Shown in pieces: positions 24,933-30,947 of a stretch of DNA of 40,883 bases. Each line of letters begins with the position of its first letter. Position 1 is the stretch's first letter. Under the pieces are notes generated by a model. That model saw only the letters and a list, made by a program, of their open reading frames with translations, was not told the origin of the DNA and made no database searches. Both the position numbers and the translations under genes were made by a program. The stretch comes from a virus (lineage: Duplodnaviria > Heunggongvirae > Uroviricota > Caudoviricetes), in the IMG/VR virus record IMGVR_UViG_2923334124_000004; one strand, written 5' to 3'.

Positions 24933-25183
24933 TGAAAGAATACCGCTATTCCGGCCCGGCCAGCGGCGTCACGCTGTCGGACGGAACCGAAATCCTGCTC
25001 TGGCCGGGGAAGACGGTTTCCCTGCCGGAGGAGCATGACTACGTGAAGGTACTGGTGGCGCTGAAACATCTGACGCCGGTACCTGAAGAGACTAAACCCG
25101 CCGGCACACCGGCTGTGCAGTCACCAAAGCGCAGAAGCAGCAGTGACAGCGAAGTGAAAACGGAGGACACCCATGGCAGCTAA
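24929..25183 (+). CDS. hypothetical phage protein (Mu gp38-like position)
   Basis: 84 aa ORF immediately upstream of the sheath gene. Confidence 0.4.
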   Translation: MMKEYRYSGPASGVTLSDGTEILLWPGKTVSLPEEHDYVKVLVALKHLTPVPEETKPAGTPAVQSPKRRSSSDSEVKTEDTHGS

Positions 25184-26600
25184 CTATCTGCATGGTCCCG
25201 AAACCATTGAGGTGGAAAACGGTGCCCGCCCGGTTAAAACGGTGAAATCTGCCGTTATTGGCCTGATTGGTACCGCCCCGATGGGGGATGTCAATACGCT
25301 GGTACAGTGCCTGTCTGAGAAAGACGCAGCGGCATTTGGCAGCCAGTTCACCGGCTTTACCATTCCGCAGGCGCTGGATGCGATTTATGACCATGGTGCA
25401 GGCACCGTTCTGGTCATTAACGTCCTCGACCCGGCGAAACATAAAACGGCGATCGAGGATGAGGTGGTTACCTTTGACAAATCGACAGGGCAGGCCAGAC
25501 TGGCGCATCCGGTTGTCGCTAATGTGGTGGTGAAAAACAGTGAAGGCAGCACCACCCACACGGCGAACACGGACTACCGTGTTGATGCGCAGGCGGGTGT
25601 GCTCACGAACCTGGGCAAGGCTATTGAGGCCGGTGGCAGCGTGAAGGTGAGCTATGAGTACGCGGACCCGTCGAAGGTGACTGCGGCGGACATCATCGGC
25701 GGGGTGAACAGCGCCGGAAACCGAACCGGCATGAAGCTGCTTAACGACAGCTTCAACCTGTACGGCTATTTCGCCAAAATTCTGATTGCGCCGGTGTTCT
25801 GCACCCAGAAGAGTGTCGCAGTTGAGCTTATCGCCATGGCAGAGAAGCTGGGCGCGGTAACCTACATTGATGCGCCTGTCGGTACCACCTTTGCACAGGC
25901 TCTGGCAGGTCGTGGCCCGGAAGGCACCATCAACTTCAATACCAGCTCCGACCGCGTCCGTCTGTGCTATCCGCATGTGAAGGTATATGACCCGGTGACA
26001 AACACAGAGCGTCTGGAGCCGCTCAGCCAGCGTGCAGCAGGTCTGCGTGCCAGAGTCGATCTGGACAAGGGCTACTGGTGGTCATCCTCCAATCAGGAGA
26101 TTCTGGGGATCACCGGCGTGGAGCGCCAGCTGTCCGCGATGATTGATGACCCGCAGAGTGAGGTGAACCTGCTTAACGAACAGGGGATCACCACGGTATT
26201 CAGCAGTTACGGCAGCGGCCTTCGTCTGTGGGGTAACCGGACGGCAGCATGGCCAACGGTCACCCATATGCGTAACTTTGAGAACGTTCGCCGCACCGGT
26301 GATGTGATCAACGAGTCCATTCGTTATTTCAGCCAGCAGTACATCGACATGCCGATTACTCAGGCGCTGATTGATGCACTGACGGAGTCGGTCAACGCCT
26401 ACGGTCGCAAAATGACTGGTGATGGTGCGGTACTGGGCTTCCGTTGCTGGTTTGATCCGGCCCGCAATCCGGAGACGGAGCTGGCCGCCGGGCACCTGTT
26501 GCTGAGCTACAAATATACGCCACCACCGCCGCTGGAGCGACTGACGTTTGAGACTGAGATCACCTCGGAATACCTGTTAACCCTGAAAGGGGGCAACTGA
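25173..26600 (+). CDS. contractile tail sheath protein
   Basis: 475 aa; N-terminus YLHGPETIEVENGARPVKTVKSAVIGLIG is typical of sheath proteins; followed by the tube gene. Confidence 0.8.
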   Translation: MAANYLHGPETIEVENGARPVKTVKSAVIGLIGTAPMGDVNTLVQCLSEKDAAAFGSQFTGFTIPQALDAIYDHGAGTVLVINVLDPAKHKTAIEDEVVTFDKSTGQARLAHPVVANVVVKNSEGSTTHTANTDYRVDAQAGVLTNLGKAIEAGGSVKVSYEYADPSKVTAADIIGGVNSAGNRTGMKLLNDSFNLYGYFAKILIAPVFCTQKSVAVELIAMAEKLGAVTYIDAPVGTTFAQALAGRGPEGTINFNTSSDRVRLCYPHVKVYDPVTNTERLEPLSQRAAGLRARVDLDKGYWWSSSNQEILGITGVERQLSAMIDDPQSEVNLLNEQGITTVFSSYGSGLRLWGNRTAAWPTVTHMRNFENVRRTGDVINESIRYFSQQYIDMPITQALIDALTESVNAYGRKMTGDGAVLGFRCWFDPARNPETELAAGHLLLSYKYTPPPPLERLTFETEITSEYLLTLKGGN

Positions 26601-27121
26601 TGTCAAAGATTGAGATAAACCGCATCACGAATGCCAACATCTATCTGGATGGTACTAACCTGCTGGGACGGGCTGAGGAAGTTAAACTCCCCGATGTCTC
26701 CATGATTATGCAGGAACACAAGGCGCTGGGGATGGTGGGTAAGGTGGAACTCCCGGCTGGTTTTGACAAACTGGAAGGCGAAATCAAATGGAACAGCTTT
26801 TACCGCGATGCGATGCTGTCTGCCGCGAACCCGTACAGGTCGCTGGCACTGCAGTGTCGTTCCAGCGTCCAGCGCTACAGCTCGCAGGGGCTGATTGACG
26901 AAATCCCGCTGGTCACCTTCCTGACGATTATGTTCAAGAAGAACCCGCTGGGGACGTTCAAACAGCACGAGAACGCCGAGTTCTCCAGTAGCTTCACCTG
27001 CACGTATATCAGACAGGTACTGGATGGTGAAGAGCTGCTGCAACTGGACTATCTGGCCAACATCTTCCGGGTCGGCGGTGTTGATCAACTGACTGACTAC
27101 CGTATCAATATCGGGGGCTGA
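26600..27121 (+). CDS. tail tube protein
   Basis: 173 aa; position directly after the sheath gene. Confidence 0.65.
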   Translation: MSKIEINRITNANIYLDGTNLLGRAEEVKLPDVSMIMQEHKALGMVGKVELPAGFDKLEGEIKWNSFYRDAMLSAANPYRSLALQCRSSVQRYSSQGLIDEIPLVTFLTIMFKKNPLGTFKQHENAEFSSSFTCTYIRQVLDGEELLQLDYLANIFRVGGVDQLTDYRINIGG

Positions 27122-27123
27122 CG

Positions 27124-27405
27124 GTGAGTGTTGAACTGACGGATAAAGGAGGACGATGTGCGGCACTGGGCATGTCAAATGGTACGTGGTTTACCCTCCT
27201 TGATATTCCGGGGGTGGAAACCCTTTTTAATACCCGTAAAACCAATGACCCGATTGACTGCACACGTTCAAAGGCCCGCAAACTGGCGGATTTGATTGAA
27301 GCATGGGAGCCTCCCGACCACTGGTTCTCCGGCATCGGCAAATCTGAGGGAAAGACGCTTCTCATCGCTTTCCTGCGTAACTGCAAGGGGTTTCGCACTT
27401 GCTGA
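27124..27405 (+). CDS. hypothetical protein (between tube and chaperone genes)
   Basis: 93 aa ORF starting at GTG 27124; an alternative internal ATG exists at 27172. Confidence 0.35.
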   Translation: MSVELTDKGGRCAALGMSNGTWFTLLDIPGVETLFNTRKTNDPIDCTRSKARKLADLIEAWEPPDHWFSGIGKSEGKTLLIAFLRNCKGFRTC

Positions 27406-27411
27406 CATCAC

Positions 27412-27435
27412 AGGGGCTCCGGCCCCTTCTTCTTA
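27412..27435 (+). terminator. candidate hairpin/terminator (AGGGGC-TCCG-GCCCCT followed by TCTTCTT)
   Basis: GC-rich inverted repeat and a T-rich tail in the gap before the chaperone gene. Confidence 0.35.
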
Positions 27436-27439
27436 ATCT

Positions 27440-27450
27440 CCTTTAATATC
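27440..27450 (+). promoter_or_regulatory. candidate late-promoter element CCTTTAATATC
   Basis: Exact 11-mer shared with 33791-33801; located in the intergenic region upstream of the chaperone/tape-measure genes. Confidence 0.3.
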
Positions 27451-27502
27451 CGTCACGCGCTTCTCCCGACATACTGCCCTGAACTTACACAGGAGCACAA
27501 TC

Positions 27503-27838
27503 ATGTCACAGACCCCATCCGATACTTTTAAATTGTCTTATCCCTTCACCACTGCTGCAGGCACCAGAATTGAGCTGGTTGAACTGAAACGCCTGACGGT
27601 AAAAGACCTGAAGCAGGTGCGCAAAATCAGCAAAAACCCGGCAGACTGGGACGAACCGCTGATTGCCCGCAGTACTGGTCTTCTCCCGGAGGATCTCGAC
27701 AATATGGATCTGGCTGATTACCTGCAGTTACAGAAACGATTTCAGCTCATCACGGGGATGGGTGAGAGCAACCAGGGCGCTGACGCAGGCGCAGGGGCTG
27801 CTGGCGAGATGGTTCCGGTTTCAGCCGGGGGAGATTGA
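27503..27838 (+). CDS. tail assembly chaperone (P2 gpE-like)
   Basis: 111 aa; position immediately upstream of the tape measure; overlapped by a second ORF in another frame, as in G/GT and E/E' pairs. Confidence 0.5.
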   Translation: MSQTPSDTFKLSYPFTTAAGTRIELVELKRLTVKDLKQVRKISKNPADWDEPLIARSTGLLPEDLDNMDLADYLQLQKRFQLITGMGESNQGADAGAGAAGEMVPVSAGGD

Positions 27839-27920
27839 TGCCCTCGATACTGACGATCTGGAGATGTGGCTGGAGCAGGCTGAAGAGCAAATCAAAAGCG
27901 AGTACGGCGACAAATCATAG
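27663..27920 (+). CDS. frameshift extension of the tail assembly chaperone (E'-like)
   Basis: An ORF in the +1 frame relative to 27503-27838 stays open through the chaperone stop and ends 75 bp before the tape measure; the real product would be a fusion and the shift site is undetermined. Confidence 0.4.
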   Translation: MPAVLVFSRRISTIWIWLITCSYRNDFSSSRGWVRATRALTQAQGLLARWFRFQPGEIDALDTDDLEMWLEQAEEQIKSEYGDKS

Positions 27921-27995
27921 TACAGACAGCCGCCAGTAGCGGCTGTTCTGCGTTATCCCCTCACGTCTTTTCACCTTCCCCGGAGGTTAACCACT

Positions 27996-30947
27996 ATGTC
28001 GGGACAGTTTTCAGTCGGCGTTGTTATCGGCGGGATGATTGGCAGCACATTCCGTTCTGCAATGAGCGGTACCCGCCGTGCGCTTGATTCCCTGAGCGAT
28101 ACCTCACGCCGCCTGCAGGAACGTCAGAACGCTTTAACCCGTGCAACAGAACGTTATGGTCAACTGGGTTCTTCCCGGATGCAGCATCTCAACAGCGAGC
28201 TGCTGCGGGTAAGCCGCACCATGGAGCAAATTGAGCGCCAGCAGCGCCGTCTGTCAGCGGCATCCGCTACCAGTGATGCGCTGAAAGCTAACCGCATGGC
28301 GCTGTATGGTCAGGGGATTGAAGCGTATGGCATGGCACAGACTGTTTATCATACGGTTTCCCCTGCCGTTCAGCAGTCCATGTCTTTTCAGGACAAAATG
28401 ATTGATATGTCGATCACCGCAAAATATGACAATAAAACGCGGGATGCACTTGCCGGACAGATAAAAGGCTGGGCGCTTAAATACAATCAGTATCAGGATG
28501 AGCTGCAGGAGGCGATGGGTTCACTCATCAGCGACAATATTGATAATGTGTCAGATATCGGTTTTCTGATGCCGGATATTGCCCGCGCGGCAACGGCAAC
28601 ACGCACGTCTGCTCAGGACTGGGCAAAAGTGGCCGCAGTCTGGCAAAACTCCCTGAAAGGCGCGGCCAGAGATTTTGGTGCCGTTCAGAATATTATGGCT
28701 TATGCCGGTGACCAGGGGTCATTTGAAATCCCGGATCAGGTCAAGTGGATGCAGTCCCTGGCCCCAATGATGGCGGGTATTGCCAGTGGAAAAGAGGCTG
28801 TTGCTGAAATCGGGGCCAGTCTCCAGATAGCAAAAATCGGTGCAGGTTCCACCGACGAAGCAGCCAATAATTTTAAAAACTTTCTTACCAAAATTTTTGC
28901 CCGCGATACTCAGAAACAGTTTGCTGATCTGGGTATTGATTTGCAGGGATCTATTGCGAGTTATAAAGCTGCGGGGATCTCTCCGATTGAAGGGATGTTG
29001 AGTGTTATAGAACGTTACCTCAATGCCAAAAGCCCCGAAGCGCTGGCCGGCTTCAAATCAGCCATGAAAATAAAGAATGATACGGCAAGAGATGAGGCAC
29101 TTCAGGCTCTGGCGAAAAACTTTGGTCTGGGCGATATGTTCGCGGATATGCAGGTCATGGCATTTATCCGCCCGATGCTGGCCAACATGGACAGATATCG
29201 AGAGATCCGTGCCGGTGCTCTCAGGGCTGCGGATAACGATTTGCTTGCCAGTGCTTATGATCAGCGGCTGAAATCTCCCCTTGAAGCCACTAAAACACTT
29301 ATGGTCAGCAGTCGCGATCTGGCAATTACGCTGGGCGATCAATTAGCTCCATCTTTTATTTCTCTGACTCAGGACTTGCTCCCACTCATTCAGGGGACAA
29401 AACACTGGGTGGCGACTCACCCGCAATTTGTCAGTGGGGCTTTTAAGCTCATCAGTGCGCTCCTTGCGATTAAGATAGCGACTGTTGGTCTCAAACTGGG
29501 GCTGAATCTCCTTATTTCCCCCTTTGTGAACGTCTGGAAAACTGCTGTTTTACTCCGGACCAACTGGCATCGACTGACTACCGCACTCGGAGAAGGTGGC
29601 AAATTACGCTGGCTTGTCACTGGATTCAGCCGACTGACCAGCGGAGGACTGAAACTCAGCAAAGTTCTGGCGGGCAGCCTCGTTCGCGGTTTTATGAGCG
29701 CTGCACGTGCCGTTCTCTGGATTGGGCGAGCGCTGATGATGAATCCCATCGGTCTCGTTATCACCGCTGTCGCGGCAGCAGCTTACCTTATCTACCGCAA
29801 CTGGGGGGCAGTCAGTGGCTGGTTTAAACAGCGCTGGGCTGACATTCAGGAAGCCTTTAACGGCGGTATCGCGGGAACTGGTAAGCTGCTGATTAACTGG
29901 TCGCCGGCAGGCCTGCTCTATAAAGCCTTTGCGGCTGCGCTGAAATATTTCGGCGTTACTCTGCCGGCAAAGTTCACCGACTTCGGTGGCCATCTTATCG
30001 ACGGTTTGATTAACGGTATCAAAAACAAATGGGGGTCGCTCAAATCCAGTGTAACCGGAATGGGTGACAGCATCAGTAGCTGGTTTAAACAATGCTGGGC
30101 TGACATTCAGGAAGCCTTTAACGGCGGTATCGCGGGAACTGGTAAGCTGCTGATTAACTGGTCGCCGGCAGGTCTGCTCTATAAAGCCTTTGCAGCTGCG
30201 CTGAAATATCTTGGTGTTGATCTGCCGGCAAAGTTTACCGACTTCGGTGGCCATCTTGTCGATGGTCTGATTAACGGTATCAAAAACAAATGGGAGTCGC
30301 TCAAATCCAGTGTAACCGGAATGGGCGACAGCATCAGTGGCTGGTTCAGCGAAAAGCTGGGCATTCATTCGCCGAGCCGCGTGTTTATGGGCTTTGGTGA
30401 CAATATCGCGCAGGGGGCCGCCATTGGCCTGCAGCGGACCACTCCGCTTGCAGCTCTGGCCGGGCAGCGAATGGCCAGTGAACTGCTCCCCAGAATGCCC
30501 GTGAGCATTCAGGGGCCAGAAATACGGGATAACACTTCAGGTGTTCGCTTCAGTATGCCGTTGCCCGATATCAATGGGTTTATGTCGTCTGCTAAAAATG
30601 CGATCGGAGCCGTAATCAATAGTTTGTCTTCCATGCCCGCTATTCCGCTCTCCACCCGGGCATCGATTTTACCAGGGCAACGTCTGGCAAATGAGATGAC
30701 ACCGGATGTTCCCCGTATCCCCTCGCCTGAAATCCTGGCTGCCGGATATTCAGGCCGTGGTGCAGCTGCAACCGGCGGTGGAACGTCTGGTGGTATCCAG
30801 GTCAGCTTTAATCCTCAGTTTTTCCTCAATGGCAGGGAAACCACAGCGCCTGCAGGACTGACTGGTGCCCTGAATATGAGTCTGCATGAGCTGGAAAAAA
30901 TGCTGGAGCGTCTGCTGGCTCAGAAACAACGTAAGGAGTACCGCTGA
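27996..30947 (+). CDS. tail tape measure protein
   Basis: 983 aa; long helical protein with hydrophobic segments; follows the chaperone pair; contains an internal 261-bp tandem duplication. Confidence 0.85.
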   Translation: MSGQFSVGVVIGGMIGSTFRSAMSGTRRALDSLSDTSRRLQERQNALTRATERYGQLGSSRMQHLNSELLRVSRTMEQIERQQRRLSAASATSDALKANRMALYGQGIEAYGMAQTVYHTVSPAVQQSMSFQDKMIDMSITAKYDNKTRDALAGQIKGWALKYNQYQDELQEAMGSLISDNIDNVSDIGFLMPDIARAATATRTSAQDWAKVAAVWQNSLKGAARDFGAVQNIMAYAGDQGSFEIPDQVKWMQSLAPMMAGIASGKEAVAEIGASLQIAKIGAGSTDEAANNFKNFLTKIFARDTQKQFADLGIDLQGSIASYKAAGISPIEGMLSVIERYLNAKSPEALAGFKSAMKIKNDTARDEALQALAKNFGLGDMFADMQVMAFIRPMLANMDRYREIRAGALRAADNDLLASAYDQRLKSPLEATKTLMVSSRDLAITLGDQLAPSFISLTQDLLPLIQGTKHWVATHPQFVSGAFKLISALLAIKIATVGLKLGLNLLISPFVNVWKTAVLLRTNWHRLTTALGEGGKLRWLVTGFSRLTSGGLKLSKVLAGSLVRGFMSAARAVLWIGRALMMNPIGLVITAVAAAAYLIYRNWGAVSGWFKQRWADIQEAFNGGIAGTGKLLINWSPAGLLYKAFAAALKYFGVTLPAKFTDFGGHLIDGLINGIKNKWGSLKSSVTGMGDSISSWFKQCWADIQEAFNGGIAGTGKLLINWSPAGLLYKAFAAALKYLGVDLPAKFTDFGGHLVDGLINGIKNKWESLKSSVTGMGDSISGWFSEKLGIHSPSRVFMGFGDNIAQGAAIGLQRTTPLAALAGQRMASELLPRMPVSIQGPEIRDNTSGVRFSMPLPDINGFMSSAKNAIGAVINSLSSMPAIPLSTRASILPGQRLANEMTPDVPRIPSPEILAAGYSGRGAAATGGGTSGGIQVSFNPQFFLNGRETTAPAGLTGALNMSLHELEKMLERLLAQKQRKEYR
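29820..30341 (+). repeat. in-frame tandem duplication, 2 x 261 bp (87 aa each), inside the tape measure gene
   Basis: The units 29820-30080 and 30081-30341 align with about 16 mismatches by manual count (roughly 94% identity); protein repeats WFKQ(R/C)WADIQEAFNGGIAGTGKLLINWSPAGLLYKAF... Confidence 0.85.

Follow-up and report, generated by a model that had tools for sequence, protein, structure and literature searches.

A candidate +1 frameshift site in the gpE-like tail chaperone gene of a BcepMu-like Escherichia coli prophage

We analyzed the gene for the tail assembly chaperone in IMG/VR virus record IMGVR_UViG_2923334124_000004, a stretch of 40,883 nucleotides (nt) that we refer to as the window. 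It represents a BcepMu-like (Bcepmuvirus) prophage of E. coli whose contractile tail module is of the P2 type and whose chaperone open reading frame (ORF1) is overlapped by a second ORF in the +1 frame. Based on comparison with about 135 related loci, we propose that a long chaperone form is made by a +1 slip at CGA_UUU_C (27737-27743), a reading to which we assign a probability of about 0.68. Here, we describe the two frames and the selection acting on them, then the interval in which the shift can lie and the candidate site within it, and finally the alternatives, the likely mechanism, and the gene context (Table 1).

The chaperone pair and its +1 extension

ORF1 runs from an ATG at 27503 to a TGA at 27836-27838 and encodes 111 amino acids (aa). 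Residues 8-81 match Phage_TAC_7 (PF10109, the family of gpE, gp41, and gp14; 74.8 bits with a cutoff of 25, E=5.5e-21), and the protein also matches phrog_166, annotated as "tail protein" (E=2.8e-32). RefSeq lists it as WP_000084213.1, "phage tail assembly protein," and the PhiKM record lists it as "tail protein E." A preliminary description of this DNA, made from its letters, had called ORF1 chaperone-like, as the TAC_7 match bears out. The overlapping ORF (27663-27920) comprises 85 codons from a TTG, stops at TAG 27918-27920, and is followed by a 75-nt gap before the tape measure ATG at 27996. Its start is 0 mod 3 compared to 2 mod 3 for ORF1, which places it in the +1 (equivalently −2) frame. 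The preliminary description had located both ORFs, the gap, and a run of five Gs near the ORF1 stop correctly, and it had rightly recognized the conserved arrangement of a long-form chaperone upstream of the tape measure gene.

The +1 peptide (...LLARWFRFQPGEIDALDTDDLEMWLEQAEEQIK) matches the Pfam family Phage_P2_GpE (PF06528) at 18.4 bits, below the cutoff of 23 (E=0.0015; profile positions 4-36 of 37), and matches phrog_8286 ("unknown function") with E=2.7e-34. A long-form profile constructed from seven +1-type proteins of different lineages aligns with P2 gpE+E' over 123 columns that include the junction (hhalign 91%, E=1e-6). Because ORF1 matches TAC_7, the +1 peptide resembles the GpE profile below its threshold, and the hhalign alignment continues through the junction, ORF1 and the extension are, by homology, most likely the counterpart of the P2 E and E+E' pair. 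In the +1 frame, a P-x-x-L motif some 10 residues ahead of LLARWF lines up with the "FPKNL" in P2 E', so this stretch belongs to the extension as well. Public annotation (PhiKM, RefSeq) gives the short form only. NCBIfam yielded no match to the long form or the extension, and the PDB yielded no sequence match to the long form.

Relatives were drawn from GTDB genomes, GenBank phages, and IMG/VR, and the N-terminal domain (N-domain) and the extension were located separately by tblastn, with no shift motif required. The extension is +1 relative to the N-domain in 99/103, 21/21, and 16/16 loci of three sets (about 135 in all), which agrees with the earlier placement of the second frame at +1/−2 rather than −1. 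The +1-type lineages include E. coli and other Enterobacterales, Salmonella, Brenneria, Ralstonia, Pseudomonas phage Bise, and Burkholderia phage BcepMu, with identities to the window protein as low as 30%. The four loci of the 103-locus set that are not +1 are Pasteurella phage AFS-2018a (−1), L104 (several frame errors), L018, and L025. A 1-nt deletion five codons before the Phe puts the extension in frame in L018 (Apirhabdus apintestini CP138906), and a 1-nt deletion beside the G-run fuses frame 0 to GEIDALD in L025 (IMGVR_UViG_2734481909_000003). These two deletions could be real hard-wired fusions, or they could reflect dead prophages or assembly errors.

Selection on the two frames was assessed by the ratio of non-synonymous to synonymous changes per site (pN/pS; Nei-Gojobori counts), with positions given in nt after the TTT of the candidate site and the E. 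coli-type set comprising 61 unique sequences. In this set, the N-domain has a frame-0 pN/pS of 0.21. Within the overlap, pN/pS is 0.34 in the +1 frame and 1.01 in frame 0, compared to 1.4-1.7 in off-frame controls; beyond the overlap, the extension has a +1 pN/pS of 0.25. The extension values are 0.35 in the Ralstonia-type and 0.12 in the BcepMu-type relatives. The preliminary description had raised the question of whether relatives conserve the second frame at the protein level, and they do (pN/pS 0.25-0.34, about 135 loci). On the strength of its resemblance to P2 E', its low pN/pS, and its +1 position in about 135 loci, we conclude from the sequence comparisons that the +1 ORF is a real coding region.

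Two further observations concern the extension and its relatives. The extension DNA (27785-27900) is near-invariant between the window and loci L002 and L003, though upstream identity is only about 82%; this suggests recent recombination (mosaicism) or extra constraint. In the BcepMu record (L023, AY539836, 24858-25363), the E'-like +1 ORF gp42 is described as the lambda G analogue and gp43 as its slippage product ("T"); gp43 is an Arg/Gly/Asp-rich ORF that overlaps the start of the tape measure gene. The record does not link gp42 to gp41, the N-domain protein. Our comparison suggests that gp41 and gp42 are the true BcepMu pair and that the record pairs the wrong ORFs as G and T.

The candidate site CGA_UUU_C

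The relatives limit the shift from both sides. In all Ralstonia-type loci (14/14), the +1 frame opens just 8 nt before the TTT, and in L007, it opens 14 nt before. At the other end, frame 0 stops 9-10 codons past the Phe in L122 and the Pseudomonas phage Bise group. A 90-aa E. coli variant (protein P0014), which is recorded on 914 contigs and also occurs in loci L041 and L042, carries CAG>TAG at 27773-75 and thus a frame-0 stop at codon 91; the same change is ACC>ACT in the +1 frame and is silent, making this variant a natural experiment that bounds the shift site. Because of the late +1 opening in the Ralstonia type and the early frame-0 stops in L122, Bise, and the 90-aa variant, the conserved shift site must, as far as these alignments tell, be confined to 27732-27767. 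The frame-0 tail past the shift is 31 codons in the window and 9-36 codons across +1-type relatives, and in ORF1, the tail after Phe80 is poorly constrained. The upstream part of the open +1 frame, before the site, is probably never translated and open by chance only, given how late the frame opens in relatives.

Within this interval, TTT followed by C (27740-27743) is the only slippery motif common to all lineages. It is present in every +1-type locus, never as TTC, in 61 unique versions, 21 loci (GC 0.47-0.68), and 16 loci of the respective sets. The TTT is kept even in loci of GC 0.58-0.68, compared to a background in which TTT makes up about 24% of Phe codons (a crude count). Where an Arg codon comes just before the TTT, it is CGA in 71 of 72 unique contexts, while CGA accounts for about 12% of CGN codons in the same loci. 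BcepMu-type loci mostly have UCC_UUU_CGC; in some, the first codon is GCC or UCU and the third CGU. Altogether, the motif is conserved at synonymous sites beyond what the protein requires, in sequences that are phylogenetically related. Phe80 is homologous to the Phe codon under the P2 −1 site; both lie 11 residues after a conserved "DL." The comparison of relatives for a slippery site, as proposed in the preliminary description, yielded a shared TTT-C motif; the G-run is not conserved in deeper lineages, and the P2-like U-rich heptamer T_TTT_TTG is absent. The motif sits about 95 bases upstream of the G-run.

Selection near the site is broadly consistent with a shift at this position. In the E. 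coli type, pN/pS at +3 to +27 is 0.50 in frame 0, 0.58 in the +1 frame, and 1.26 in the +2 control; at +27 to +51 (27768-27791), it is 1.12 in frame 0 and 0.38 in the +1 frame; and at +51 to +75, all changes are synonymous in the +1 frame and non-synonymous in frame 0. Thus, the first eight codons past the TTT are constrained in both frames and later codons in +1 only. In the Ralstonia type, the first seven codons past the TTT have pN/pS values of 0.54 in +1, 1.00 in frame 0, and 1.59 in the control.

Several points weigh against CGA_UUU_C as the site. The Phe is a conserved domain residue, and shared ancestry confounds the conservation of its TTT in part. The motif lacks a Shine-Dalgarno-like sequence upstream, and the A-site codon, CAG, is neither a stop nor clearly rare. 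A hairpin at 27745-27769 is weak (z = −2.0; 7/200 shuffles as stable) and is not conserved in KP12-type relatives, and a longer region downstream of the site gives z = −0.6 as a stimulatory RNA structure. The L025 fusion, if real and functional, would favor a late junction (one contig). In the BcepMu type (10 sequences), the first seven codons past the TTT have a pN/pS of 0.33 in frame 0 and 0.99 in +1, and only after about 24 nt do the values become 1.50 and 0.46, respectively. Either the shift in the BcepMu type takes place as much as about 24 nt downstream of the motif, or the 10-sequence sample may be too small.

Alternative explanations

The +1 ORF might be translated on its own, with no frameshift, from an internal start such as the GTG at 27761, which follows GGGGA and would give about 52 aa. 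Gene callers do call the +1 ORF separately (phrog_8286 starts at that Val, and BcepMu gp42 is annotated as an independent ORF from an ATG), and an ATG, GTG, or TTG can be found somewhere in the +1 frame of many relatives. However, no one start is conserved: the GTG at +22 occurs in 6/54 unique sequences and an ATG at +43 in 31/54, and the window has ACG where the KP12 type has that ATG. Independent initiation is unlikely because the start codon is not conserved. Moreover, the +1 frame is constrained upstream of the candidate starts, and the homologous P2 protein is a demonstrated E+E' fusion, with homology that spans the junction.

The preliminary description had pointed to the G-run, CAGCCGGGGGAG at 27822-27833, with its five Gs two codons before the ORF1 stop. 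In a slip of −2 (or +1) like that of Mu, the shift would take place here on GCC_GGG_GGA_G (27824-27833), with tRNA-Gly re-pairing two bases back to give ...MVPVSAGG followed by EIDALD.... The verified −2 shift of Mu uses a comparable run (A_CGG_GGG_CGA), a location two codons ahead of the stop is the classical one, and L025 and several 138-aa database proteins are in-frame fusions exactly at the G-run. As the conserved site, however, the run does not hold up. Frame 0 has already stopped before it in KP12-type, Salmonella-type, and most other relatives (a TAG lies 21 nt before the run), and Brenneria, Salmonella, Ralstonia, Pseudomonas, and BcepMu lack it, having AGT, ACG, or TCC codons of a conserved QP(S/T/G)E motif instead. 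From 27768 or earlier, which is ≥60 nt ahead of the run, the +1 frame shows purifying selection, and substitutions at 27791-27815 are all synonymous in +1. The same holds for KP12-type relatives, at about 82% DNA identity, whose differences (AGA/AGG, TTC/TTT, and CGG/AGA) are all synonymous in the +1 frame. A product made at the G-run would also be without LLARWFRFQP, the most conserved part of E'. As for the 138-aa database fusions, their junctions vary among homopolymers (G5, GGGG, GGG, and an A-run) and they often contain further frame errors, so they are best explained as assembly indel errors; we dropped these artefacts as a guide to the junction. What the G-run encodes in the +1 frame accounts for its presence (Table 1). 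A slip there is very unlikely as the source of the long form. It could serve as a minor second route in the window variant, with a product that lacks the conserved LLARWFRFQP.

A shift within the block 27785-27806, either +1 by tRNA-Gly on GGG_G (27794-27797) or −2 by tRNA-Ala from GCA to GCG (27789-27793), is highly improbable. Close relatives do not vary in this block, synonymous changes in a few relatives seemed to switch frame near 27785-27790, and GGG_R would permit perfect re-pairing of tRNA-Gly(UCC). Yet in Bise, L122, and the 90-aa E. coli variant, frame 0 ends upstream of this block, so that the GGG_G (27794-97) and GCG_CA (27789-93) candidates, which came from a three-sequence alignment, both fall past these stops and were rejected. 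The +1 frame is already constrained at 27768-27791, the P-x-x-L motif that aligns with P2 E' lies upstream of the block in the +1 frame, and the block is not conserved in Bise or BcepMu. A prfB-like GAGGUG-GUU-UAG in KP12-type relatives was also considered and rejected; it is absent in the window (GAGAUG GUU CCG) and would skip the conserved LLARWF.

Relic status for the +1 ORF, with a long form that is dispensable or never produced, is barely credible: public annotation has only the short form and a stimulatory element was not found, but pN/pS of the extension is low in all three clades and the extension is kept in the +1 frame across lineages sharing only about 30% identity.

Proposed mechanism, known systems, and gene context

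Returning to a +1 shift at CGA_UUU_C, the mechanism that we infer, from the ribosomal nature of the shift and its exact site to its efficiency and the functions of the products, would be as follows. For tRNA-Phe (anticodon GAA), UUC is a better pairing partner than UUU. A minority of ribosomes would shift when peptidyl-tRNA-Phe leaves UUU and re-pairs with the overlapping UUC, its fully Watson-Crick codon. In an equivalent route, tRNA-Phe would take UUC out of frame with the weakly paired CGA in the P site, giving the same protein. Translation would then run in the +1 frame to the TAG at 27918-27920, and the predicted product is a 138-aa long form that consists of chaperone residues 1-80 and a 58-aa gpE'-like extension (SSSRGWVRATRALTQAQGLLARWFRFQPGEIDALDTDDLEMWLEQAEEQIKSEYGDKS), with the junction reading ...LQLQKRF followed by SSSRGWVR.... 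Going by what is known of lambda G/GT and P2 E/E+E', the N-domain common to both forms would coat the tape measure protein, and recruitment of the tail tube protein would fall to the extension, with a fixed low ratio of long to short form presumably needed for tail assembly. The shift is probably of low efficiency, as it is in lambda and P2.

The closest known system is P2 gpE/gpE+E', which belongs to what are probably the same two families (Phage_TAC_7 plus a GpE-like extension), occupies the same slot between the tube (FII) and tape measure (T) genes, and shifts, where the TAC_7 domain ends, on the Phe codon homologous to Phe80. In contrast to the +1 shift proposed for the window, P2 shifts −1, at an experimentally annotated T_TTT_TTG (a U6 heptamer; GGT TTT TTG), and has a frame-0 tail of 6 codons past the shift compared to 31 here; the window extension also differs in scoring below the Pfam GpE cutoff. 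Mu gp41, from a transposable myophage, is likewise a tail chaperone whose gene directly precedes that of the tape measure protein, with its long form in the +1/−2 frame, and the window shares a similar G-run near the ORF1 stop. A −2 frameshift in Mu gp41 is reportedly the subject of Xu, Hendrix and Duda (2004). The preliminary description had mentioned a −2 shift in Mu, and rightly so: the Mu record gives a "verified -2 translational frameshift, PMID 15469818" at A_CGG_GGG_CGA, and Atkins 2016 (PMC5009743) agrees. However, Mu gp41 belongs to Gp41_Mu (PF23746; E=8e-34), with TAC_7 marginal at 23.8 bits against a cutoff of 25, while ORF1 matches only PF10109. In addition, the Mu extension is unrelated to GpE', and the G-run of the window family lies past the frame-0 stop in most members.

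With respect to the shift itself, UUU_Ynn has been described as especially prone to +1 shifting in bacteria (YopN-TyeA), and UCC_UUU_CGU is the +1 cassette of influenza PA-X (PMC5009743). The site proposed here resembles those of Yersinia YopN-TyeA and influenza A PA-X (UCC_UUU_CGU) in the proposed slip of a single P-site tRNA-Phe from UUU to UUC and in having no stop codon and no strong stimulator, from which low efficiency is expected; the mostly UCC_UUU_CGC sites of BcepMu-type relatives are further akin to PA-X. It differs in that the shift would set a structural assembly ratio in a double-stranded DNA phage, the 5' codon is mostly CGA rather than UCC, and the site is predicted. Lambda gpG/gpGT occupies the same gene slot and has short and long chaperones in a fixed ratio that act on the tape measure and tail tube (PMC5009743), but it shifts −1 at G_GGA_AAG in a siphovirus tail and has no sequence similarity. 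Haloarchaeal HSTV-2 (PMC5009743) and actinobacteriophages (PMC10885494) use +1 in the same functional slot, with about 350 "forward" tail chaperone shifts annotated in the latter (PMC10885494); their protein families and hosts are unrelated, and the sites are mostly guessed.

Frameshifted tail chaperones are textbook knowledge, and the literature already describes −1, −2, or +1 shifts depending on the phage (PMC5009743). What appears to be new is a large +1 clade in the gpE family, the likely CGA_UUU_C site far upstream of the stop, and its coincidence with the P2 −1 site. Our literature search, which did not extend to Xu et al. 2004 or Summer et al. 2004, found no description of a +1 shift in gpE/BcepMu-like chaperones. 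To our knowledge, few conserved bacterial +1 frameshifts are known besides prfB. The chances seem about even that a whole clade of gpE-type chaperones (Bcepmuvirus and related Enterobacterales, Pseudomonas, Ralstonia, and Burkholderia prophages) uses a stimulator-poor +1 shift on CGA_UUU_C or UCC_UUU_CGY, at the Phe codon where P2-like phages shift −1, with weakly decoded CGA (I:A wobble) just 5' of the UUU as the stimulator. If so, the same assembly ratio would have been achieved anew at one homologous codon, by a shift opposite in direction. A widely conserved UUU_C with a conserved 5' CGA and neither a stop nor a Shine-Dalgarno stimulator would be a testable natural system, and P2, as a −1 relative at the same codon, a useful evolutionary comparison.

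The main immediate use is annotation correction. The long chaperone is missing from RefSeq/PGAP and phage annotation of a very common prophage family, and a rule that joins residues 1-80 to the +1 frame at CGA_TTT_C would mend hundreds of records. The chaperone region (27480-28000) is present in 776/5,426 complete E. coli genomes, with identity ≥99% in 575, so that about one in seven carries the +1 arrangement. Engineering of BcepMu-like phages or tailocins would require both chaperone forms.

Table 1. Features of the tail module around the chaperone pair, in window coordinates
Feature	Position	Strand	Evidence
Tail sheath gene	25173-26600		
Tail tube gene	26600-27121		Pfam Phage_tube, E=2.9e-53
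93-aa ORF between tube and chaperone genes	27124-27405		phrog_1239 (unknown function), E=4.7e-48
ORF1, short tail assembly chaperone, gpE-like, frame 0, 111 aa	27503-27838	+	PF10109, phrog_166, RefSeq
Upstream part of open +1 frame	27663-27739	+	opens late in relatives, start codon not conserved
Proposed +1 shift site CGA_UUU_C (Arg79 CGA 27737-39, Phe80 UUU 27740-42, C 27743)	27737-27743	+	motif conservation
+1-frame extension, E'-like, 58 codons and TAG stop, SSSRGWVRATRALTQAQGLLARWFRFQPGEIDALDTDDLEMWLEQAEEQIKSEYGDKS	27744-27920	+	PF06528 below threshold, hhalign, pN/pS
G5 run, part of Pro-Gly-Glu in the conserved FQPGE motif of the +1 frame	27827-27831	+	
Tape measure gene, 983 aa	27996-30947	+	Pfam PhageMin_Tail, E=1.3e-20; same annotation in PhiKM and RefSeq

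Over 27100-28100, the window matches Escherichia phage PhiKM (genus Bcepmuvirus) with 100% identity, and in the tail module, the sheath, tube, and tape measure genes are followed by homologues of gpU, gpX, and gpD. The chaperone pair lies between the tube gene and the gene for the tape measure protein, the expected client of such a pair, with one additional small ORF (27124-27405) in between. This 93-aa ORF has a weak DUF7739 match; it is found in KP12 and E. coli relatives and is absent from P2 and Salmonella L019.

Two hairpins flank the chaperone genes. A terminator-like hairpin at 27412-27437, AGGGGCTCCGGCCCCT then TCTTCTTAAT, is located inside the tail operon between the 93-aa ORF and the chaperone gene and might act in transcription attenuation or mRNA stabilization. 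An 8-bp GC-rich hairpin at 27926-27946, ACAGCCGC-CAGTA-GCGGCTGT, lies between the extension stop and the tape measure start with no T-tract after it; its stem is conserved and its loop variable in KP12 and Phi06_2974B. The tape measure gene has a sequencing gap in the PhiKM record and is marked incomplete by RefSeq in strain SK1144. In the window, it contains a 261-nt tandem duplication at 29812-30346 (2.0 copies, 93% identical) that adds about 87 aa and may lengthen the tail.

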